The translations under genes were made by a program, and so were the position numbers. A DNA stretch of 64,000 nucleotides from assembly GCF_009931435.1 (NCBI RefSeq), contig NZ_CP043414.1; one strand, written 5' to 3'. Shown piece by piece: positions 7,440-16,962 of the stretch; the stretch's first letter is position 1; every line of letters begins with the position of its first letter. The notes under the pieces are model-generated. The model searched no databases, was not told the DNA's origin, and was given only the letters and a program-made list of their open reading frames with translations. This stretch comes from Escherichia coli (GTDB lineage Bacteria > Pseudomonadota > Gammaproteobacteria > Enterobacterales > Enterobacteriaceae).

Positions 7440-9722
7440 ATGTCCGAGCTTAATGAAAAGTTAGCCACAGCCTGGGAAGGTTTTACCAAAGGTGACTGGC
7501 AGAATGAAGTAAACGTCCGTGACTTCATTCAGAAAAACTACACTCCGTACGAGGGTGACGAGTCCTTCCTGGCTGGCGCTACTGAAGCGACCACCACCCT
7601 GTGGGACAAAGTAATGGAAGGCGTTAAACTGGAAAACCGCACTCACGCGCCAGTTGACTTTGACACCGCTGTTGCTTCCACCATCACCTCTCACGACGCT
7701 GGCTACATCAACAAAGCGTTGGAAAAAGTTGTTGGTCTGCAGACTGAAGCTCCGCTGAAACGTGCTCTTATCCCGTTCGGTGGTATCAAAATGATCGAAG
7801 GTTCCTGCAAAGCGTACAACCGCGAACTGGACCCGATGATCAAAAAAATCTTCACTGAATACCGTAAAACTCACAACCAGGGCGTGTTCGACGTTTACAC
7901 TCCGGACATCCTGCGTTGCCGTAAATCCGGTGTTCTGACCGGTCTGCCAGATGCTTATGGCCGTGGTCGTATCATCGGTGACTACCGTCGCGTTGCGCTG
8001 TACGGTATCGACTACCTGATGAAAGACAAATACGCTCAGTTCACCTCTCTGCAGGCTGATCTGGAAAACGGCGTAAACCTGGAACAGACTATCCGTCTGC
8101 GCGAAGAAATCGCTGAACAGCACCGCGCTCTGGGTCAGATGAAAGAAATGGCTGCGAAATACGGCTACGACATCTCTGGTCCGGCTACCAACGCTCAGGA
8201 AGCTATCCAGTGGACTTACTTCGGCTACCTGGCTGCTGTTAAGTCTCAGAACGGTGCTGCAATGTCCTTCGGTCGTACCTCCACCTTCCTGGATGTGTAC
8301 ATCGAACGTGACCTGAAAGCTGGCAAGATCACCGAACAAGAAGCGCAGGAAATGGTTGACCACCTGGTCATGAAACTGCGTATGGTTCGCTTCCTGCGTA
8401 CTCCGGAATACGATGAACTGTTCTCTGGCGACCCGATCTGGGCAACCGAATCTATCGGTGGTATGGGCCTCGACGGTCGTACCCTGGTTACCAAAAACAG
8501 CTTCCGTTTCCTGAACACCCTGTACACCATGGGTCCGTCTCCGGAACCGAACATGACCATTCTGTGGTCTGAAAAACTGCCGCTGAACTTCAAGAAATTC
8601 GCCGCTAAAGTGTCCATTGACACCTCTTCTCTGCAGTATGAGAACGATGACCTGATGCGTCCGGACTTCAACAACGATGACTACGCTATCGCTTGCTGCG
8701 TAAGCCCGATGATCGTTGGTAAACAAATGCAGTTCTTCGGTGCGCGTGCAAACCTGGCGAAAACCATGCTGTACGCAATCAACGGCGGCGTTGACGAAAA
8801 ACTGAAAATGCAGGTTGGTCCGAAATCTGAACCGATCAAAGGCGACGTCCTGAACTACGATGAAGTGATGGAGCGCATGGATCACTTCATGGACTGGCTG
8901 GCTAAACAGTACATCACCGCACTGAACATCATCCACTACATGCACGACAAGTACAGCTACGAAGCCTCTCTGATGGCGCTGCACGACCGTGACGTTATCC
9001 GCACCATGGCATGTGGTATTGCTGGTCTGTCCGTTGCTGCTGACTCCCTGTCTGCAATCAAATATGCGAAAGTTAAACCGATTCGTGACGAAGACGGTCT
9101 GGCTATCGACTTCGAAATCGAAGGCGAATACCCGCAGTTTGGTAACAACGACCCGCGTGTAGATGACCTGGCGGTTGACCTGGTAGAACGTTTCATGAAG
9201 AAAATTCAGAAACTGCACACCTACCGTGACGCAATCCCGACTCAGTCTGTTCTGACCATCACTTCTAACGTTGTGTATGGTAAGAAAACTGGTAACACCC
9301 CAGACGGTCGTCGTGCTGGCGCGCCGTTCGGACCGGGTGCTAACCCGATGCACGGTCGTGACCAGAAAGGTGCTGTAGCATCTCTGACTTCCGTTGCTAA
9401 ACTGCCGTTTGCTTACGCTAAAGATGGTATCTCCTACACCTTCTCTATCGTTCCGAACGCACTGGGTAAAGACGACGAAGTTCGTAAGACCAACCTGGCT
9501 GGTCTGATGGATGGTTACTTCCACCACGAAGCATCCATCGAAGGTGGTCAGCACCTGAACGTTAACGTGATGAACCGTGAAATGCTGCTCGACGCGATGG
9601 AAAACCCGGAAAAATATCCGCAGCTGACCATCCGTGTATCTGGCTACGCAGTACGTTTCAACTCGCTGACTAAAGAACAGCAGCAGGACGTTATTACTCG
9701 TACCTTCACTCAATCTATGTAA
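7440..9722 (+). CDS. pflB: Pyruvate formate-lyase (formate C-acetyltransferase 1), glycyl-radical enzyme
   Basis: 760-aa [46 protein letters not shown]... with the C-terminal glycyl-radical region (RVSGYAVRF). Confidence 0.98.
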
Positions 9723-9791: not shown

Positions 9792-9913
9792 GCACGAGAG
9801 CCTTTTTTGTCAGCTATCTATACTTTAAGGTGACTGCCAAAACAGACTCGACGTAGCCTTCGAGCTGCGCACCAACACGGCCTCAGATGGGCCACATCTG
9901 GAGAAACACCGCA

Positions 9914-10654
9914 ATGTCAGTTATTGGTCGCATTCACTCCTTTGAATCCTGTGGAACCGTAGACGGCCCGGGTATTCGCTTTATCACCTTTTTCCAGGGC
10001 TGCCTGATGCGCTGCCTGTATTGTCATAACCGCGACACCTGGGACACGCATGGCGGTAAAGAAGTTACCGTTGAAGATTTGATGAAGGAAGTGGTGACCT
10101 ATCGCCACTTTATGAACGCTTCCGGCGGCGGCGTTACCGCATCCGGCGGTGAAGCAATCCTGCAAGCTGAGTTTGTTCGTGACTGGTTCCGCGCCTGCAA
10201 AAAAGAAGGCATTCATACCTGTCTGGATACCAACGGTTTTGTTCGTCGTTACGATCCGGTGATTGATGAACTGCTGGAAGTAACCGACCTGGTAATGCTC
10301 GATCTCAAACAGATGAACGACGAGATCCACCAAAATCTGGTTGGAGTTTCCAACCACCGCACGCTGGAGTTTGCTAAATATCTGGCGAATAAAAATGTGA
10401 AGGTGTGGATCCGCTACGTTGTTGTCCCAGGCTGGTCTGACGATGACGATTCAGCGCATCGCCTCGGTGAATTTACCCGTGATATGGGCAACGTTGAGAA
10501 AATCGAGCTTCTCCCCTACCACGAGCTGGGCAAACACAAATGGGTGGCGATGGGTGAAGAATACAAACTTGATGGTGTTAAACCACCGAAGAAAGAGACC
10601 ATGGAACGCGTGAAAGGCATTCTTGAGCAGTACGGTCATAAGGTAATGTTCTAA
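9914..10654 (+). CDS. pflA: Pyruvate formate-lyase activating enzyme (radical SAM)
   Basis: ATG at 9914 ([39 protein letters not shown]...) gives 246 aa with the CxxxCxxC radical-SAM motif. Confidence 0.97.
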
Positions 10655-10663
10655 TTTCCCCGT

Positions 10664-10692
10664 AAAGCGGCAACTTTATTGAGTTGCCGCTT
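10664..10692. terminator. Bidirectional hairpin terminator between convergent pflA and ycaK
   Basis: Inverted repeat agcggcaac-tttattg-agttgccgct flanked by T-rich sequence. Confidence 0.5.
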
Positions 10693-10735
10693 TGTTATTC
10701 CGCGCTTCATTCTGCTACAGCGTTTTTAACACATC

Positions 10736-11326
10736 TTATAGTGCATCTACCATATCCCGTACCTGAGATAATAACGACTGATAATAGCTCGCGTGAAGTT
10801 CTTCTCCATCGAATACCACTGTATTACACAAGAAAGTGACATCGGCATCTTCAATACCAAGATAACTGCACATATTTATCAAATAATCGCTTATATTTTT
10901 TTCCCAGCCCATCTGGACAAATGATTCTTTGTCTCCTCCAACCAGCGCCACCCAACGAACTTTATTGAATGGTAATTTGTGCCCATCTCCATAAGCCAGC
11001 CCATTATTCCATACTCTGTCAATATATCCTTTTATCATTGCTGGGAAGTTGTACCACCAGAGAGGAAAAACCACCACTAACGTGTCATGTTCAAGCAGCT
11101 CTGAATAAAGCTGATGAACATCTGGAGAATAACGTTTATCCATATTCTTCCAGTCTGGTTCATCTTCCGGCGTCATCACCGGGTTGAAATTACGCCGATA
11201 TAAATCGAGTTCCGTCACCTGTATTTTCCGCTCCATTGCCCGCTGATGGATCGCATCAGCAATATGTGCGGTCAATGAATCATGACGAGGATGGGCCCAT
11301 ACCAAATAAATACGTTCAGACTGCAT
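10736..11326 (-). CDS. ycaK: Flavodoxin-like-fold NAD(P)H oxidoreductase family protein YcaK
   Basis: 196-aa ORF MQSERIYLVWAHPRHDSLTAHIADAIHQRAMERK...; length and position match K-12 YcaK. Confidence 0.9.
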   Translation of the reverse strand: MQSERIYLVWAHPRHDSLTAHIADAIHQRAMERKIQVTELDLYRRNFNPVMTPEDEPDWKNMDKRYSPDVHQLYSELLEHDTLVVVFPLWWYNFPAMIKGYIDRVWNNGLAYGDGHKLPFNKVRWVALVGGDKESFVQMGWEKNISDYLINMCSYLGIEDADVTFLCNTVVFDGEELHASYYQSLLSQVRDMVDAL

Positions 11327-11425
11327 AATTTTACCTCCACGTTAAGTTCTGGAGCGCACTTTACGCAGGCGGCATCATCCTGTAAACGTGATGATTCAGG
11401 ATGAGTTAATGAAGGATTTTCACTA

Positions 11426-12334
11426 ATGCGGATGAATATGTCTGACTTTGCCACTTTCTTTGCCGTGGCCCGTAATCAAAGCTTTCGTGCAGCAGGCGAT
11501 GAGTTAGGCTTATCTTCGTCCGCCATTAGCCATAGTATTAAAACACTGGAACAACGTCTTAAAATTCGCTTATTCAATCGGACAACCCGAAGCGTATCGT
11601 TAACGGAAGCGGGTTCTAATCTCTATGAACGATTGCGCCCAGCTTTCGACGAAATTCAGATCATGTTAGATGAGATGAATGATTTTCGTCTGACACCGAC
11701 AGGTACGCTCAAAATCAATGCCGCCCGGGTAGCTGCACGTATATTTTTAATACCTTTACTGGTTGGTTTCACACGTGAATATCCTGATATTAAAGTCGAG
11801 CTCACAACTGACGACTCTCTTGTTGATATCGTCCAGCAGGGCTTTGACGCTGGCGTTCGACTTAGTGGCATCGTCGAAAAAGATATGATCAGCGTGGCGA
11901 TCGGCCCGCCAGTGAAATTATGTGTAGCAGCAACGCCAGAGTACTTTGCAAGATATGGCAACCCCCGCCATCCTCATGATCTGCTTAATCATCAATGTGT
12001 TGTTTTTCGTTATCCCAGCGGCAAACCTTTCCACTGGCAATTTGCAAAAGAGCTGGAAATTGCTGTCGCAGGAAATATCATTCTGGATGATGTTGATGCT
12101 GAACTGGATGCCGTTTTGATGGGTGCTGGTATCGGGTATCTGCTTTATGAACAGATCAAGGAGTACCTTGATACCGGTCGTTTAGAATGTGTACTGGAAG
12201 ACTGGATCACAGAGCGTCCAGGCTTCCAGATCTATTACCCAAACCGCCAGTATATGTCCTGCGGCTTGCGCGCATTTCTCGATTATGTAAAAACGGGTCA
12301 GATCTGCCAGAGTCAGCGTCACCGACCACAATAA
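11426..12334 (+). CDS. ycaN: LysR-family transcriptional regulator YcaN
   Basis: 302-aa ORF with an N-terminal HTH typical of LysR regulators (FRAAGDELGLSSSAISHSIKTLEQRL); divergent from ycaK. Confidence 0.9.
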   Translation: MRMNMSDFATFFAVARNQSFRAAGDELGLSSSAISHSIKTLEQRLKIRLFNRTTRSVSLTEAGSNLYERLRPAFDEIQIMLDEMNDFRLTPTGTLKINAARVAARIFLIPLLVGFTREYPDIKVELTTDDSLVDIVQQGFDAGVRLSGIVEKDMISVAIGPPVKLCVAATPEYFARYGNPRHPHDLLNHQCVVFRYPSGKPFHWQFAKELEIAVAGNIILDDVDAELDAVLMGAGIGYLLYEQIKEYLDTGRLECVLEDWITERPGFQIYYPNRQYMSCGLRAFLDYVKTGQICQSQRHRPQ

Positions 12335-13765
12335 TTATTTGCTATTCGCTTTACGCGCCAGCAGCGGGAATATCAGCCCTAATCCCACCAGCACAAACGG
12401 CGTTGCAACATTCAGCGCCAACTGGAATGTCCACTCTGCGGTGAAGGCTTCCATTTTCGGGAAAATACCAGTCAGGCAGGCAAAAGCGGTAAAGGCAAAA
12501 CACCAAATTCCGACGGTCATTGCCAGCGGCTTATTACGAATAAAGACATATTCCGGCTTATATTTCTGCGCCAGGCGAACAACTGCAATAAATGCAACAA
12601 ATACCCATAAATAACGCAGCGGCATCACTACCGAGTTAAGATTCAACAGCCATTTATAGAGATTGTTCATATCACCAATGCCGAGAGTCGGCAGCATTAT
12701 CAGGATCGCCACCAGCACCAGGGTCAGAAAATAGCCATTAACGGGCGTACCAGAAGCGTTGGTACGACATAAACTGGCTGGAATATATTTGCTGTCAGCA
12801 TCGCCTAATAACACTTTAAGCGGCGCATCAATCGAGAATACCAGCGCAGCTACTTGTCCTAGGGTATTCGCAATGGCATAAATCACCATTAAAGTATTAC
12901 CCATGTTGTAATATTCGCCCAGCTTCTGAAAGGCGTAATACTGACCGTTAGTCATTAAGTCATCCGGGATATTACGCGAGTCAAACATCATCCCCATCGC
13001 CAGTGAGCCCAGAATGGCACAAACCGCAACCATCACCGCCAGGCATAACATCCCTTTTGGAAATTCTTTTCCTGGGTTGCGCGTTTGATTAACGTAAGGA
13101 GAAATCTTCTCTGCTCCGCCAACCGCGAAAACCAGCATTGAAATAGTGGTAATGTAGGTAAAGTCGATATGAGGAATGAACGTTTCCCAGGTAATGTTTG
13201 TGGTCGCAATATGCACTTCAGTAATCGCAGGCGCGGTTACCGCCATCGCCACATACAGGAGCGACATAACAAACATCGCAATCCCTGCCACAGAACCGAC
13301 GATTTTCAGCGATTTCATACCGCGTGAAGCAACCCACATAAAGAAGACAAACAGCACCAGCGTTAACCCCTGTAACGCTACGACGGAATATTCTTTGATT
13401 AACGAACCGTCGCCTTTCATCGCCCAACCGAGCGCAATCAGTATTGCCTGGGGTTTTTGTGCCAGATAGGGAATATGCACTACCCAGTAGGTCCACGCGG
13501 CGAGGTAAGCCAGTCCGGGTCCCATCGTGTGTTTAATCCAGGTACTGACCCCGCCCTTCCCATCTTTGAAGGTCGAGCCTAACTGACCAACAATTAGCGC
13601 ATAAGGTGTGAAATAGAGCGCAAATATAAACACCCATGAAAAAACAACCACCAGCCCCTGGTTGGCGTAGTTATTAACAACGTTGCCAAAACCCCAGACA
13701 GTGATAAAAGACATCAGCGCAATGTTGTACCATCGCAGCTGTTTTTCCTGAACATTCCCAGCCAT
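12335..13765 (-). CDS. ycaM: APC-family amino acid/polyamine transporter YcaM
   Basis: ORF track gives 540 aa from an upstream start. ATG at 13763-13765 (MAGNVQEKQLRWYNIALMSF...) gives the expected 476 aa multi-pass membrane protein. Confidence 0.9.
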   Translation of the reverse strand: MAGNVQEKQLRWYNIALMSFITVWGFGNVVNNYANQGLVVVFSWVFIFALYFTPYALIVGQLGSTFKDGKGGVSTWIKHTMGPGLAYLAAWTYWVVHIPYLAQKPQAILIALGWAMKGDGSLIKEYSVVALQGLTLVLFVFFMWVASRGMKSLKIVGSVAGIAMFVMSLLYVAMAVTAPAITEVHIATTNITWETFIPHIDFTYITTISMLVFAVGGAEKISPYVNQTRNPGKEFPKGMLCLAVMVAVCAILGSLAMGMMFDSRNIPDDLMTNGQYYAFQKLGEYYNMGNTLMVIYAIANTLGQVAALVFSIDAPLKVLLGDADSKYIPASLCRTNASGTPVNGYFLTLVLVAILIMLPTLGIGDMNNLYKWLLNLNSVVMPLRYLWVFVAFIAVVRLAQKYKPEYVFIRNKPLAMTVGIWCFAFTAFACLTGIFPKMEAFTAEWTFQLALNVATPFVLVGLGLIFPLLARKANSK

Positions 13766-13923
13766 AGACAAATCCTTCGCCAAAATTAAAGGGGCATCTG
13801 TAAAACGAGGGATTATGCGCGGCAAATAAGAAGTGCGGAAATAGCGAAATGCAAAATTATAACCTGCTGCACATTTTATTTTGAAACGAATAAAATTTTG
13901 AAAAAAGCAAGTCAGAGAGAAGA

Positions 13924-13964
13924 AACAAAAAAGCAGAGTGTGAAACAGTAAGTTCACACTCTGC
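13924..13964 (-). terminator. Intrinsic terminator of ycaD
   Basis: Strong hairpin gcagagtgtgaa-N-ttcacactctgc followed on the minus strand by a U-run (plus-strand aaacaaaaaa). Confidence 0.6.
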
Positions 13965-13974
13965 GTTAATTCAT

Positions 13975-15123
13975 TTACACGTGAGCAACGGGTTTCGGCG
14001 TATGACCGGCGTTGCGAAGCAGCATCAGCAAATAGATAAACGATACGCTGGCGATCATGATAAACAATAAATTATCGGAGAAATTCTGCATTAGCATAGC
14101 GGTAAATGACGGGCCAAGCAGACTTCCTACGGTATAGCTCAACAGTAAGGCCTGGTTCATCGCCACCAGTTGATGATGTTCAACTTTCTCGCAAGCCCAT
14201 GCCATCGCCACCGGATATAGCGTAAAGCCAGCGGCACCGAGGATGAATAACGCTGGGGCCATCGCCGCCTGGCTAAGCATCGCGATACTGCCGAGAATGA
14301 CGACAAAGACCTGAACACGCAACACCAGCAGTCGACCAAACTTATCCGCCAGACGTCCAATCGGCCATTGTCCAAGGATACCCGCACTGACCAGTACCGC
14401 CATCCAGAAACCAATGCTGGCATTGCTCACCCCTTTGTGATTGAGGTACAGCGGCATCAGGCCATATAGAGATCCCAGAACGATTCCTGAGATAATGCAG
14501 CCATTCACGCCAAGCCGCGCCTGACGGAGTTTTAGCATGGACGTAATTAACGTCGAATCATGGTTTTCAGCCTGCTGATTCAGCACACGCGTAAACAACA
14601 GCGGTAAGATCCCTGCCAACGTCAAACCTGTAACCCACGGCAATACGGACATCAGCTCGGTTGAAACTTTGCTGACCAGTAACTGGCCTAAAAACGTTCC
14701 CACGTAATAAACCATCATATACGCAGCAAGCAAACGCCCACGGTTACGTGACGTCCCACTGCACATCAGCGCGCTCTCAACAACCACCCAAATCATGGCA
14801 CAGCCGACGCCGGCGACAAAACGCCAAGCCAACCAGCTCCAGAATCCAATCATCAGGCCAAGGCCGGCACAGCCAGCGGCAAAAATGAAGGAGGCCAGAT
14901 AATAGCTGCGGTTAAAGCCAATGCGCTTAATGACATACCCTGTCAGCAATGTACCGACCAGGTTGCCGGTAAAATAGGATGAGCTGACAACGCCTACCTG
15001 CCATGTGGACATATGTTCCTGGGCGAGCCAAAGCGGCACGAGTGTATTTAACACTGCGATCGCCAAAGTCAACAAAAGCAGGCCAGACAGCAAAAGCATG
15101 ACAGGCCGGGTATACGTGGACAT
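13975..15123 (-). CDS. ycaD: MFS transporter YcaD
   Basis: 382-aa [40 protein letters not shown]..., a 12-TM-type hydrophobic profile. Confidence 0.93.
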
Positions 15124-15437
15124 GAATTAAAACCGTGAGGAAGTTCAAATTTCATGCGCATCATGCCACCGCCAAAAACATTGTCAATGGGTGAAAATAC
15201 GCGCATATCGCAGCTGAGGTATTATCGATTTATATTACTCATTCATAACGCTAATGCTGGAGAGACGATTAATCTCATCTGATTGTTTTTATTGATCTAA
15301 CACAAATTTCATACGCTTCGTTCAGTCGAAAAATTTCATGGTCACAGCAAACTCATATTTCCCGTCTATGCTTTCAGAGCAATGCATCGCGTCTGACCGA
15401 TTTCAGACGTACCGCTGACTCTCGAAAGGAGAAGAGG

Positions 15438-16064
15438 ATGACCAAACCGTATGTTCGTCTTGATAAAAATGATGCTGCCGTTTTGCTTGTTGATCACCAG
15501 GCTGGTTTACTTTCCCTTGTACGGGATATCGAACCCGATAAGTTTAAAAATAACGTGCTGGCGCTGGGCGACCTAGCTAAGTATTTCAACTTACCTACTA
15601 TTCTTACCACCAGTTTTGAAACCGGTCCTAACGGCCCATTAGTTCCAGAACTGAAAGCACAGTTTCCCGATGCACCTTACATTGCTCGCCCGGGAAATAT
15701 TAACGCCTGGGATAACGAAGATTTTGTAAAAGCTGTCAAAGCGACAGGTAAAAAACAGTTAATTATTGCCGGTGTGGTAACCGAAGTTTGCGTGGCATTC
15801 CCGGCGCTTTCAGCCATTGAAGAAGGGTTTGACGTCTTTGTCGTGACTGACGCGTCAGGGACCTTTAATGAAATTACCCGGCATTCGGCATGGGATCGCA
15901 TGTCGCAAGCTGGTGCGCAATTGATGACATGGTTCGGCGTGGCGTGCGAGCTGCATCGCGACTGGCGTAATGATATTGAAGGACTGGCGACGTTGTTCTC
16001 TAACCATATTCCTGATTATCGTAATTTGATGACCAGTTATGACACGTTAACGAAGCAGAAATAA
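15438..16064 (+). CDS. ycaC: Isochorismatase-family hydrolase YcaC
   Basis: 208-aa ORF MTKPYVRLDKNDAAVLLVDHQAGLLSLVRD... recognised as YcaC. Confidence 0.93.
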   Translation: MTKPYVRLDKNDAAVLLVDHQAGLLSLVRDIEPDKFKNNVLALGDLAKYFNLPTILTTSFETGPNGPLVPELKAQFPDAPYIARPGNINAWDNEDFVKAVKATGKKQLIIAGVVTEVCVAFPALSAIEEGFDVFVVTDASGTFNEITRHSAWDRMSQAGAQLMTWFGVACELHRDWRNDIEGLATLFSNHIPDYRNLMTSYDTLTKQK

Positions 16065-16069
16065 AAGAG

Positions 16070-16091
16070 AACCGGGGCCGAAACCCCGGTT
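16070..16091. terminator. Bidirectional hairpin terminator between convergent ycaC and dmsC
   Basis: Inverted repeat aaccggggcc-gaaa-ccccggtt. Confidence 0.5.
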
Positions 16092-16098
16092 GTTATGA

Positions 16099-16962
16099 TT
16101 AGCTTGCGACGGCCATCCCCACGGTCATATGCAAACCATAGAATACGCCACGACCGATTAATTCCCCTGCCAGAAGCAGAATGAATGATACGGAAAGTAG
16201 CGGAACCGCAGGCTGATAACCTTTTAGCTGTGGTGCAATCCACAAGCACAGGGCAACAGCCAAAAGCACGATCCGCCAGGACATCAGCGCACCATAGTCC
16301 GGCACCAGCGCTGCGGCCTGCTGCACAGAGCTATGAATAGTCGCCAGCTCTGCGCCCTGCATCACTGACACCACGCCACTCACTACCAGGGCCAGTACAG
16401 AAATAGCTGGCAGCAGACGCATCGCCCAGCCATCGACGCCAGCCAGACTCAGCAACAGGTAACCCAGTAACGGGCCGCCCATGAACATCGTCAGGAAGAA
16501 GCCCATCGGTGTCCAGATGCTGTACCAGGTGGGTACGGTATCGATGCTGTTATAGACACGCACCATCATCCAGACAAAGACTACGCCAAGAACCATCGTC
16601 ACCACCAGCCACAGCGTACGCAATGCCGGTGACAGCTTTTTCAGCATTGCCAGTAACCAGCCGATGCCACCAACAGCAAAAAAGATCGAACCGCTGGCGA
16701 TTTCGTTACTGAGTGCTGAAGCCCCTACCCGGTTGAGCGAGTTAAAGGCGCGCATCGGTGAACCAAGATGAAGCATAGAGGCGATAAAGCCAATACCCAT
16801 CAGCACCCATAAGCCAAACATGCAGGCAATAACACGCTGCTGGGCTTCTGCTCGCAGGTCGCCTTTGAGCAGCGCCAAAGCCAGAACGATAAAACCACCC
16901 GCTACACATTGCCCGAAGACCGTGAAGATCATCAGCGGCCATTCATGCCATCCACTTCCCAT
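16099..16962 (-). CDS. dmsC: DMSO reductase membrane anchor subunit
   Basis: ATG at 16960-16962 (MGSGWHEWPLMIFTVFGQCVAGG...) gives 287 aa; the track's 308-aa ORF is extended upstream into dmsB. Confidence 0.95.
   Translation of the reverse strand: MGSGWHEWPLMIFTVFGQCVAGGFIVLALALLKGDLRAEAQQRVIACMFGLWVLMGIGFIASMLHLGSPMRAFNSLNRVGASALSNEIASGSIFFAVGGIGWLLAMLKKLSPALRTLWLVVTMVLGVVFVWMMVRVYNSIDTVPTWYSIWTPMGFFLTMFMGGPLLGYLLLSLAGVDGWAMRLLPAISVLALVVSGVVSVMQGAELATIHSSVQQAAALVPDYGALMSWRIVLLAVALCLWIAPQLKGYQPAVPLLSVSFILLLAGELIGRGVFYGLHMTVGMAVAS

Follow-up and report, generated by a model that had tools for sequence, protein, structure and literature searches.

Closest Described Systems

The closest characterised analogue of the ycaK–ycaN gene pair is the CrgA–MdaB system of Neisseria meningitidis, in which the regulator CrgA represses its own gene and activates the divergent mdaB gene (PMC2724274). 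This system is induced by the electrophile alpha-methylene-gamma-butyrolactone, apparently in an indirect manner (PMC2724274). The recognition site of LysR regulators is canonically located near position -65 of the target (PMC11495319, PMC2724274), and the classical divergent promoters of this family, such as those controlled by BenM/CatM and CbnR, combine a recognition site near -65 with activation sites near -35. YcaN is a LysR regulator of Escherichia coli that is still catalogued with function and effector unknown, and the targets assigned to it in the literature are ycaC and ycaD.

The ycaK–ycaN pair studied here lies within a 64-kb stretch of E. coli DNA, referred to below as the window. 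It resembles CrgA–MdaB in that the two regulators come from the same LysR clade, that the target is a divergent flavoprotein quinone reductase (for YcaK by prediction), and that T-N11-A sites are present in the common spacer. The two systems differ in the enzyme, as YcaK falls into a different NCBIfam equivalog (NF007280), with 4r81, NQO1, and NQO2 as its nearest structures. MdaB was absent from the NCBIfam and PDB sequence matches of YcaK, and an assignment of YcaK as MdaB orthologue was rejected, as the protein passes the NF007280 model and no MdaB model. Moreover, CrgA is octameric and its footprint covers two adjacent 30-bp sites, whereas ycaK–ycaN shows one clear predicted dyad. The likeness to the BenM/CatM and CbnR type extends to the T-N11-A spacing with 3-bp arms and an N7 spacer (compare ATAC-N7-GTAT), to the predicted centre at approximately -65, and to a divergent regulator gene whose 5' region overlaps the site. 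In contrast to these promoters, the predicted YcaN operator keeps a fixed 3-nt distance to the ATG that follows it and contains the Shine-Dalgarno sequence, and would therefore lie in the transcribed leader.

Gene Content and Organization of the Locus

The gene names were taken from the RefSeq annotation of an E. coli chromosome that is 99.7% identical to the window. According to the list of open reading frames and the sequence itself, ycaK and ycaN are divergently oriented and separated, start to start, by exactly 99 bp (Table 1), in agreement with the gap of about 100 bp given in the initial annotation. On one side of the pair RefSeq has pflA; the opposite side has ycaM (APC permease), ycaD (MFS), ycaC (isochorismatase-like hydrolase), and dmsCBA. 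The earlier description of the pair as flanked by transporters thus holds on the ycaM/ycaD side only, because the other neighbour is pflA. The divergent layout is not a product of chance, since 13 other loci in unrelated contexts have the same divergent pair, spaced about 100 bp apart. The pair is the known E. coli ycaK/ycaN and constitutes an ordinary two-gene cassette of sensor and enzyme.

Table 1. Features of the ycaK–ycaN locus and their positions in the window.
Feature	Position	Strand	Basis
ycaK	10736..11326	-	196-aa ORF; conserved divergent partner of ycaN
ycaN	11426..12334	+	302-aa ORF; LysR-type transcriptional regulator
Divergent control region common to ycaK and ycaN (99 bp)	11327..11425		Sequence
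Predicted ycaK -10, TAAAGT	11358..11363	-	Promoter scan; T1, A2, and T6 invariant in 14/14 aligned regions
Predicted ycaK -35, TTTACA (17-nt spacer)	11381..11386	-	Promoter scan; TT..CA (near-)invariant in 14/14
Candidate ycaN -10, CATCAT (GATAAT in most orthologues)	11373..11378	+	Low confidence
Predicted YcaN operator, palindrome TTAATGAA-N5-TTCACTAA	11406..11426		Inverted-repeat/palindrome analysis
Variable E. coli island ycaK-ycaN-ycaM	10694..13928		Megablast counts, representative-strain annotation, junction mapping

The Regulator and the Enzyme

YcaN carries an N-terminal winged helix-turn-helix domain (Pfam HTH_1, PF00126; 74 bits, residues 7–63) and a C-terminal substrate-binding domain (LysR_substrate, PF03466; 112 bits, residues 91–290), which together with a length of approximately 300 amino acids identify it as a LysR-type regulator. 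Its relatives in the PDB are 3mz1, 3hhg (CrgA), and 3t1b; CrgA is the second-best solved relative, with an E value of 2.5e-30 over YcaN residues 1–289. YcaN reached the cut-off of none of the NCBIfam equivalogs. On the basis of its sequence, it is assigned to the CrgA/AphB-like clade of LysR regulators.

YcaK matches Pfam family PF02525 (Flavodoxin_2) with 131.9 bits (cut-off 27) and the NCBIfam equivalog NF007280 (PRK09739) with 347.3 bits (cut-off 162). Its AlphaFold model has a pLDDT of 89.1 and a pTM of 0.88, and Foldseek matches this model best in the PDB to 4r81, a prokaryotic NAD(P)H:quinone oxidoreductase (TM 0.86, rmsd 2.1), followed by NQO1 and NQO2 (TM 0.74–0.82). Residues 2–117 are homologous in sequence to enzymes of the NQO1/NQO2/4r81 type (E values from 1e-14 to 1e-9), with which YcaK has the fold in common at a sequence identity of only about 20%; the C-terminal extension of NQO1 is missing from YcaK. 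The motifs HPR..S.T and FP.WW...PA..KG..DR are kept across 28 homologues, among which P13, R14, S17, T19, P88, W90, W91, P95, A96, K99, G100, and R104, all in the active-site region, are invariant. On homology and the modelled structure, YcaK is soundly assigned to the NQO1-like enzymes, as a putative flavoprotein that adopts a flavodoxin-like fold and would serve as an NAD(P)H oxidoreductase, with flavin-dependent quinone reduction as its predicted reaction. In the literature found, mentions of YcaK are confined to large-scale screens and to libraries for nitroreductase/oxidoreductase screening, and none of these papers reports a specific activity for it. KefF and KefG, the ancillary subunits of the KefC and KefB potassium efflux systems, share the Pfam family of YcaK and show weak NCBIfam similarity to it. 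An identity of YcaK with either subunit was rejected at scores of 56.5 bits (cut-off 210) and 47.4 bits (cut-off 240), and a kefC- or kefB-like gene adjoins the pair at none of 14 loci.

Conservation Across Genera and Loss Within E. coli

All 11 sampled YcaN homologues from outside E. coli with an identity of at least 62% are accompanied by a divergent YcaK homologue (tblastn). More distant YcaN homologues are paired as well, in Pseudomonas (56%) and at two Janthinobacterium loci (52 and 45%). ORF calling puts the spacer at 78–104 bp across these loci and at 99–102 bp in the 11 closest. Neighbouring genes change from genus to genus; only in Pseudocitrobacter is the locus syntenic.

Within E. 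coli, megablast searches against 5,426 complete genomes revealed that ycaK and ycaN are jointly absent from about 2,100 of 5,424 genomes (~39%), with ycaD and ycaC always kept. About half of the genomes without ycaN keep ycaM: ycaM-ycaD-ycaC is retained without ycaK-ycaN in ~19% of the complete genomes, and another ~19% have ycaD-ycaC without ycaK-ycaN-ycaM. One haplotype carries 44 bp in place of positions 10707–12221, so that only the final 111 bp of ycaN remain, annotated as a partial gene; another has 11 bp in place of 10694–13928. Both reading frames are intact in the window and in ~3,300 genomes at 95–99% identity. An IS2 element interrupts ycaK in one strain, and the records for E. coli and Shigella include many YcaN and YcaK proteins that are truncated.

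The initial annotation had suggested that ycaM, ycaD, and ycaC could form a detoxification or catabolic module around the pair. This grouping was not borne out, as the co-occurrence fails outside E. coli, and ycaD and ycaC survive loss of the pair. By tblastn, homologues of ycaM and ycaC were found within 4–5 kb of the pair at none of the 13 loci outside E. coli, and ycaD lay near only one of these 13 pairs, at the syntenic Pseudocitrobacter locus. The three genes are neighbours of the pair in E. coli only and stand outside the ycaK–ycaN unit.

The Divergent Control Region

The intergenic region of the window was aligned with 13 orthologous regions from Enterobacterales, Pseudomonas, and Janthinobacterium. 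The 14 sequences align free of gaps over 87 columns, from window position 11354 to the ycaN ATG, and their invariant elements comprise, on the ycaK strand, TAnnnT and TTnnCA 17 nt apart, as well as TGA-N7-TCA and the ATG. A promoter scan independent of the alignment placed upstream of ycaK a sigma-70 promoter that matches the consensus at 9 of 12 positions and has 17 nt between its hexamers (Table 1), and the start of transcription, positioned from the predicted -10 element, would be at approximately 11351. Among the matches listed, 36 paralogous loci also have TAnnnT at a corresponding distance. The candidate -10 element of ycaN has invariant A2 and T3 and a nearly invariant T6 in the orthologue alignment. 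In the paralogous loci TGnGATAAT is strongly conserved on the regulator strand, but lies 8 nt nearer the dyad. A published prediction with NNPP returned no promoter for ycaN, and PePPER only a possible one on the negative strand (PMC9308461).

The predicted YcaN operator has the core TGA-N7-TCA, a T-N11-A box at 11410–11422. The arms of the palindrome match symmetrically at 7 of 8 positions; in 99 bp, 0.07 sites of this kind would be expected. All 14 orthologous regions carry the TGA and the TCA unchanged, and the spacer between them varies; the ycaN Shine-Dalgarno sequence (AGGA) sits inside this spacer and can account for part of its conservation. The core ends 3 nt before the ycaN ATG and the palindrome on the A of this codon. 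The centre of the dyad (11416) is approximately 65 bp upstream of the predicted, unmapped ycaK start. The dyad is the sole strong match (31.6 bits) to the position weight matrix in the window. A scan with this matrix found no operator-like site upstream of ycaC, ycaD, or focA; the highest score was 5.0 bits between ycaD and ycaC and 5.9 bits ahead of focA. A T-N11-A box between the two genes had been proposed as a check on the pairing; a conserved, symmetric box is indeed present, but the bare pattern is uninformative alone because it occurs six times in the 99-bp spacer. Several other occurrences, at 11389–11408, are without symmetry or clear conservation. The 15-nt form ATGA-N7-TCAY, with one extra flanking base on each side, occurs in the window at chance frequency (5 found, 4.8 expected) and was discarded. 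The inverted repeat TCATCCTG/CAGGATGA (11375–11382 and 11397–11404) is perfect in E. coli; it is not put forward as the main operator because it is not conserved among the orthologous regions. Only one strong dyad could be recognised in the spacer, and a second (activation) site was not found there.

The same dyad is located directly 5' of the start codon in 50 of 89 YcaN-like regulator loci among the matches listed, whatever the partner gene. These matches, obtained by a contig scan, are mostly paralogues of 40–56% identity and not further orthologues. The loci with a dyad before the ATG span the Alpha-, Beta-, and Gammaproteobacteria and a myxobacterium, and the partners encode SDRs, zinc-ADH-type reductases, or Flavodoxin_2 enzymes. 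As judged from this comparison, the predicted dyad travels with the regulator and not with the target. A YcaK-like/LysR pair of Burkholderia gladioli has no TGA-N7-TCA dyad, and the rule is thus not universal.

The ycaN and ycaK genes are read here as regulator and target because they are co-conserved across genera and co-lost in E. coli, and because their gap-free spacer contains a promoter and a T-N11-A dyad. The corresponding claim of the initial annotation thereby gains support of a purely comparative kind.

Published in vivo Data on YcaN

ChIP-exo with tagged YcaN in glucose M9 without added effector yielded six weak peaks (signal/noise 1.06–4.45), none of them at ycaK–ycaN (PMC8464067 supplement). 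Two of the six coincide with, or lie within ~120 bp of, peaks given for YneJ, which suggests that these two are background. Baseline RNA-seq reads were low for both ycaN (~65) and ycaK (~74; PMC8464067). Transcriptomics of a ycaN mutant, a check proposed in the initial annotation, has in part already been published: among 702 changed genes, RNA-seq of a ycaN knockout names the neighbours ycaC (down) and ycaD and focA (both up), and not ycaK (PMC9068703). No EMSA or footprint data for YcaN were found in the literature.

Proposed Mechanism and Alternatives

The gene identities and the fold, the co-conservation and co-loss, and the gap-free promoter and dyad with their geometry form the basis of the reading that we favour and regard as reasonably probable, namely that the pair is a self-contained sensor-and-enzyme cassette of the CrgA–MdaB type, in which YcaN would bind the dyad, repress itself, and switch on ycaK upon encountering its effector. 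We infer that YcaN most likely occupies TGA-N7-TCA, where it would cover its own ribosome-binding site and start codon and limit its own transcription. It would sense a small molecule, probably quinone-like or another electrophile, and effector-bound YcaN would shift its contacts towards the -35 region, turning ycaK on by activation rather than by simple relief of repression. YcaK would then use NAD(P)H to reduce quinones or electrophiles related to them.

Regulation by repression only, with YcaN released from ycaK by the effector or repressing both divergent promoters via their common region, appears rather unlikely. The predicted ycaK promoter would be fairly good unaided, given its consensus matches and spacer length, ycaK is poorly expressed in unstressed cells, and the conserved stretch between the dyad and the -35 element could act as a second site and so keep RNA polymerase out. 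However, a site centred at -65 does not itself block RNA polymerase, the related CrgA activates mdaB, and derepression of ycaK was not reported for the ycaN knockout (PMC9068703). It is very unlikely that the pair is, in E. coli, a decaying accessory remnant of an ancestral cassette that no longer forms a working circuit. Such decay could be read from its absence from more than a third of the complete genomes, the IS2 insertion and the truncated proteins, the CATCAT in place of GATAAT in the candidate ycaN promoter, and the very low expression and weak ChIP signal; but the reading frames are intact in the window and thousands of other genomes, and the window has kept every promoter and operator position as well as the residues that are invariant in the two proteins.

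We also consider it unlikely that YcaN acts as local regulator of a wider block comprising ycaC, ycaD, focA, and perhaps ycaM as a detoxification or catabolic module. The expression changes of ycaC, ycaD, and focA and a formate-utilisation phenotype in the ycaN knockout (PMC9068703) point in this direction, as does a review that gives PycaC and PycaD as targets of YcaN (PMC11495319). These genes are, however, only 3 of the 702 differentially expressed ones in a late-exponential culture, YcaN ChIP-exo peaks are lacking at all three, and their operator-like scores compare poorly with that of the ycaK–ycaN dyad. Furthermore, none of the E. coli haplotypes without ycaN has lost ycaD or ycaC, and ycaM and ycaC are missing near all 13 pairs outside E. 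coli. An indirect or weak link of YcaN to ycaC, ycaD, and focA is possible, since their expression changes in the knockout. The comparative evidence points to ycaK, and not to ycaC or ycaD, as the probable target of YcaN.

Wider Implications

If the proposed cassette is confirmed, the predicted operator and promoter at ycaK would correct the regulon assignment of YcaN. The rule of a TGA-N7-TCA before the ATG could then aid the annotation of many uncharacterised LysR/oxidoreductase pairs and could supply parts for electrophile biosensors. Apart from this, the locus is an ordinary accessory cassette for a stress enzyme. A more far-reaching view, which we hold to be distinctly improbable, combines an operator of the YcaN-like regulators that is phase-locked to the regulator's ATG and serves as both DNA and RNA with strain differences in tolerance that follow from presence or absence of the cassette. 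The recurrent order of TGA-N7-TCA, 2–3 nt, and ATG, with the Shine-Dalgarno sequence in the spacer (the 50 of 89 loci above), may represent such a phase-lock. Since transcription would include the palindrome, two levels of action are conceivable: as DNA, it could be the binding site of the regulator, and as RNA, it could fold into a small hairpin over the ribosome-binding site and so hold the regulator at a low level. As a separate matter, the presence of the cassette in ~61% of E. coli genomes and its absence from the other 39% could explain why strains differ in how well they tolerate quinones or nitroaromatic drugs.

Flanking Sequence

An Rfam search of 9800–16200 returned a sub-threshold eukaryotic snoRNA as its sole match, which is attributed to chance. 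The possibility that the retained 111-bp remnant of ycaN contains a terminator of ycaM was dismissed, as the folding of this remnant is no better than that of shuffled sequence (z = -0.54). A terminator scan of 10600–12500, with a loop limit below 9 nt, returned no terminator; a hairpin with a 9-nt loop, above this limit, is located 3' of pflA.

Organization of the ycaK-ycaN Gene Pair and Its Control Region

The window is chromosomal DNA of E. coli. Its segment 10600-12500 was matched in 5,424 of 5,426 complete E. coli genomes and shared 99.7% identity with E. coli strain 2020CK-00188 in the genome comparison. The gene order in RefSeq is pflB, pflA, ycaK, ycaN, ycaM, ycaD, ycaC, dmsCBA. The initial annotation described ycaN and ycaK as a divergent pair with a gap of about 100 bp, which is correct to the base: the genes lie start to start, separated by 99 bp. 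The transporters said to flank them were located on one side only. At 12332-12337 the convergent stop codons of ycaN (TAA) and ycaM (TAA, minus strand) abut with zero bases between them, and no terminator-like hairpin was found at these stops. In a published RNA-seq survey, ycaM-ycaN is found among the convergent overlapping-transcript pairs ("excludons"). In Pseudocitrobacter and a Budviciaceae genome the 3' end of ycaN overlaps another, different convergent gene.

Table. Features of the ycaK-ycaN region (window coordinates)
Feature	Position	Strand	Remarks
ycaK	10736-11326	-	196 aa; ORF list and sequence; RefSeq name
Predicted ycaK -10, TAAAGT	11358-11363	-	(Nearly) invariant A11358, T11362, A11363 (T1, A2, T6 on the ycaK strand)
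Candidate ycaN -10	11373-11378	+	CATCAT in E. coli, GATAAT in ycaK-type loci; least certain element
Predicted ycaK -35, TTTACA	11381-11386	-	(Nearly) invariant T11381, G11382, A11385, A11386 (TT..CA on the ycaK strand)
Palindrome TTAATGAA-N5-TTCACTAA	11406-11426		Arms symmetric at 7/8 positions
Dyad TGA-N7-TCA	T11410-G-A and T11420-C-A		(Nearly) invariant in alignment
ycaN ATG	11426	+	(Nearly) invariant in alignment
ycaN	11426-12334	+	302 aa; ORF list and sequence; RefSeq name

Orthologous intergenic regions, initially seven and then fourteen, were aligned, and the fourteen yielded 87 gapless columns, running from the block ahead of ycaK as far as the ATG of ycaN, even with Pseudomonas and Janthinobacterium included. 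The minus-strand promoter (TTTACA, 17 nt, TAAAGT) was called independently by a consensus scan. The dyad TGA-N7-TCA is a LysR-type T-N11-A box, and its centre (11416) is located approximately 65 bp upstream of the ycaK start predicted from the -10 hexamer (~11351). LysR recognition sites classically lie at this distance (architecture summarised in PMC11495319 and PMC2724274). Sites as symmetric as the palindrome 11406-11426 occur 44 times in the 64 kb, corresponding to 0.07 per 99 bp. The dyad arms are invariant and the spacer varies among genera, as would be expected for a dimer-binding site; the enterobacterial spacer contains the ycaN Shine-Dalgarno sequence AGGA. Between the ycaK -35 and the dyad, a perfect 8-bp inverted repeat (TCATCCTG / CAGGATGA, 11375-11404) is common to E. 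coli and Pseudocitrobacter and is missing from the remaining orthologues of the region; it could serve as a second site restricted to that lineage.

A position weight matrix of the predicted operator, built from ten distinct ycaK-type sites, scored 31.6 bits at 11406. The second-best match (18.3 bits; TTCATGAAGAAAATTCAGAAA, 9192-9212) lies within the pflB coding sequence and is probably due to chance; no further TGA-N7-TCA in the window has similar flanks. No operator-like site was detected by the matrix near ycaC, ycaD, or focA, where the best scores were 5.0 bits in the ycaD-ycaC intergenic region and 5.9 bits upstream of focA.

Conservation of the Pair and of the Predicted Operator

YcaN homologues were taken from a protein search and their genomic context was fetched. 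A Flavodoxin_2 gene divergent from the regulator, with a spacer of 99-101 bp, was present in Pseudocitrobacter (79% identity), a Budviciaceae genome (76%), Hafnia (68%), Serratia (64%), and two enterobacterial-type contigs (62-63%); the other neighbours differ from locus to locus except at the syntenic Pseudocitrobacter locus. The suggested co-occurrence of ycaN with ycaK was borne out by tblastn with YcaK, which placed a divergent homologue beside all 11 of the 11 non-E. coli YcaN homologues of at least 62% identity among the matches listed, with further cases in Pseudomonas (one locus, 56%) and Janthinobacterium (two loci, 52% and 45%). When YcaK was the starting point, a divergent LysR gene was seen beside a homologue in Burkholderia gladioli (44%) and not beside the homologues in Edwardsiella (42%) and Streptomyces (41%).

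In Cedecea and Pseudomonas gingeri, where the regulator has 53-54% identity, another gene of ~325 codons takes the partner's place; in P. gingeri it encodes an NAD(P)-binding protein of the saccharopine-dehydrogenase-like type, and for the Cedecea product no Pfam hit is recorded. At least 80 further YcaN-like loci came from a scan covering one genome per species. The Pfam scan of divergent neighbours, comprising 83 YcaN-like regulator loci among the matches listed and the ycaK of the window (84 proteins), revealed 42 short-chain dehydrogenases, 16 zinc-ADH-type reductases, 14 Flavodoxin_2 enzymes, and a few aldo-keto reductases and aldehyde dehydrogenases. One adjacent NAD(P)H-dependent oxidoreductase would thus be the typical target in the YcaN-like LysR subfamily.

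The dyad, followed by 2-3 nt and the start codon, was found at 50 of 89 loci among the matches listed (loci L009-L092 from other genomes; e.g., L033:3985-4003), 36 of which have a non-Flavodoxin_2 partner. Dyad-bearing YcaN-like genes occur in Alpha-, Beta-, and Gammaproteobacteria and in a myxobacterium. When these 36 listed loci were anchored on the dyad, two further elements proved conserved: an extended -10-like TGnGATAAT located 24 nt upstream of the dyad on the regulator strand, and TAnnnT on the target strand at the position corresponding to the ycaK -10. The occurrence of the dyad and both promoter features at these loci thus indicates a subfamily-wide architecture, in which a target promoter encloses the regulator promoter and a predicted operator at about -65 covers the regulator translation start; judged from sequence comparison, the dyad goes with the regulator and not with the partner gene. 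For ycaN itself, a published survey found no promoter with NNPP, and with PePPER the only possible one was on the negative strand (PMC9308461). The Stenotrophomonas/Luteibacter group carries another conserved block ahead of the start codon, most often with CTGCACAATCATG.

YcaK, YcaN, and a Characterised Analogue

YcaK matched Pfam Flavodoxin_2 and FMN_red and scored 347 bits, above the cut-off of 162, with NF007280, the NCBIfam equivalog model for "NAD(P)H oxidoreductase"; it failed the models of KefF and KefG, ancillary proteins of Kef efflux systems. Solved structures of NQO1, NQO2, and quinone reductases from prokaryotes are among its sequence relatives, and the motifs HPR..S.T and FP.WW...PA..KG..DR are invariant in 28 homologues. 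The AlphaFold model (pLDDT 89, pTM 0.88) superposed best on the NAD(P)H:quinone oxidoreductase 4r81 (TM 0.86), followed by NQO1/NQO2 (TM 0.74-0.82). In the papers found, YcaK figures solely in libraries for nitroreductase/oxidoreductase screening or in large-scale screens, with no specific activity described.

YcaN contains the Pfam domains HTH_1 and LysR_substrate and reached no NCBIfam equivalog threshold (best YafC, 158 bits vs 470). Its closest solved relatives are 3mz1, CrgA (3hhg, E 2.5e-30), and AphB. CrgA of Neisseria meningitidis, which belongs to the same LysR clade, represses itself and activates the divergent NADPH quinone oxidoreductase gene mdaB via T-N11-A sites in the shared intergenic region, and CrgA-MdaB is induced by an electrophile (PMC2724274). 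On every count that can be checked in silico, ycaK-ycaN appears to work like this best-characterised analogue, with two differences. MdaB has no orthologue in YcaK, and the two-site, octamer arrangement is described for CrgA, only one strong dyad being recognisable at ycaK-ycaN.

Relation to Published YcaN Data

Both the pair and a portion of the check proposed in the initial annotation have already been published. Gao et al. (2021; PMC8464067) obtained six weak ChIP-exo peaks for tagged YcaN in glucose M9 (signal/noise 1.06-4.45), near cspE, ynjB, yobF, ung, rho, and yihQ and none at ycaK-ycaN; baseline RNA-seq reads were low (ycaM ~18, ycaN ~65, ycaK ~74). According to the supplement of that study, the peaks at ung/grcA and yihQ/yihP (K-12 2714505 and 4066578) coincide with, or lie within ~120 bp of, peaks of YneJ, an unrelated LysR protein, and so suggest background common to both instead of specific binding. 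Rodionova et al. (2022; PMC9068703) noted the ycaN-ycaK-ycaM cluster, reported 702 changed genes in a ycaN knockout, including ycaC (down) and ycaD and focA (up), and concluded that YcaN "regulates adjacent y-genes" with function unknown; no YcaN motif is described there. A 2024 review gives PycaC and PycaD as targets and the effector as unknown (PMC11495319).

The claim that ycaN and ycaK form a LysR regulator-target pair is favoured by the comparative evidence and opposed by the negative ChIP-exo result at the locus; on sequence grounds, control of ycaK by YcaN is a well-supported prediction. These are known, annotated genes, and the system is of a known type. A ycaK-directed operator model was not found in the literature searched, and the added value is modest: an operator and promoter model open to test, and a corrected likely primary target of YcaN.

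Wider Module and Variation among E. coli Genomes

A module joining ycaN with ycaM, ycaD, and ycaC, also suggested in the initial annotation, is not supported. In tblastn searches of all loci with YcaM, YcaD, YcaC, and PflA, ycaM and ycaC were near none of the 13 non-E. coli ycaK-ycaN pairs, and ycaD and pflA were found only at the syntenic Pseudocitrobacter locus. The whole ycaK-ycaN query was present in 3,320 complete E. coli genomes vs 4,356 with ycaM, leaving ~1,040 genomes with ycaM and without the pair. O157:H7 is an example; there, 44 unrelated bp replace 10707-12221 and what is left of ycaN, its final 111 bp, carries a partial-gene annotation. In ~1,050 genomes ycaK, ycaN, and ycaM are all missing, 11 bp replace 10694-13928, and the terminators of pflA and ycaD are nearly back to back. 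As ycaD and ycaC are kept in all three haplotypes, gain or loss of ycaK and ycaN affects the two together and is independent of ycaD/ycaC and in part of ycaM.

Across complete genomes, the presence/absence polymorphism of the block 10694-13928 (compared loci L002, L003, and L004) amounts to ~61% with all three genes, ~19% without ycaK-ycaN, and ~19% without all three, and the junctions carry short unrelated filler (44 bp, 11 bp) and are not clean deletions. An IS2 element interrupts ycaK in one strain (NZ_CP169399.1), and truncated YcaK and YcaN proteins of E. coli and Shigella are numerous in the protein database, both being signs that decay is continuing in some lineages. P2-like prophage genes (integrase, Cox, and others) lie directly upstream of pflA, annotated 19 codons longer, in strain DETEC-S792 (L004:1-3607) and just past dmsA in strain S5 (L003:14513-16097); with prophage genes on both sides in different strains, the pflA-dmsA neighbourhood thus appears to hold phage integration sites.
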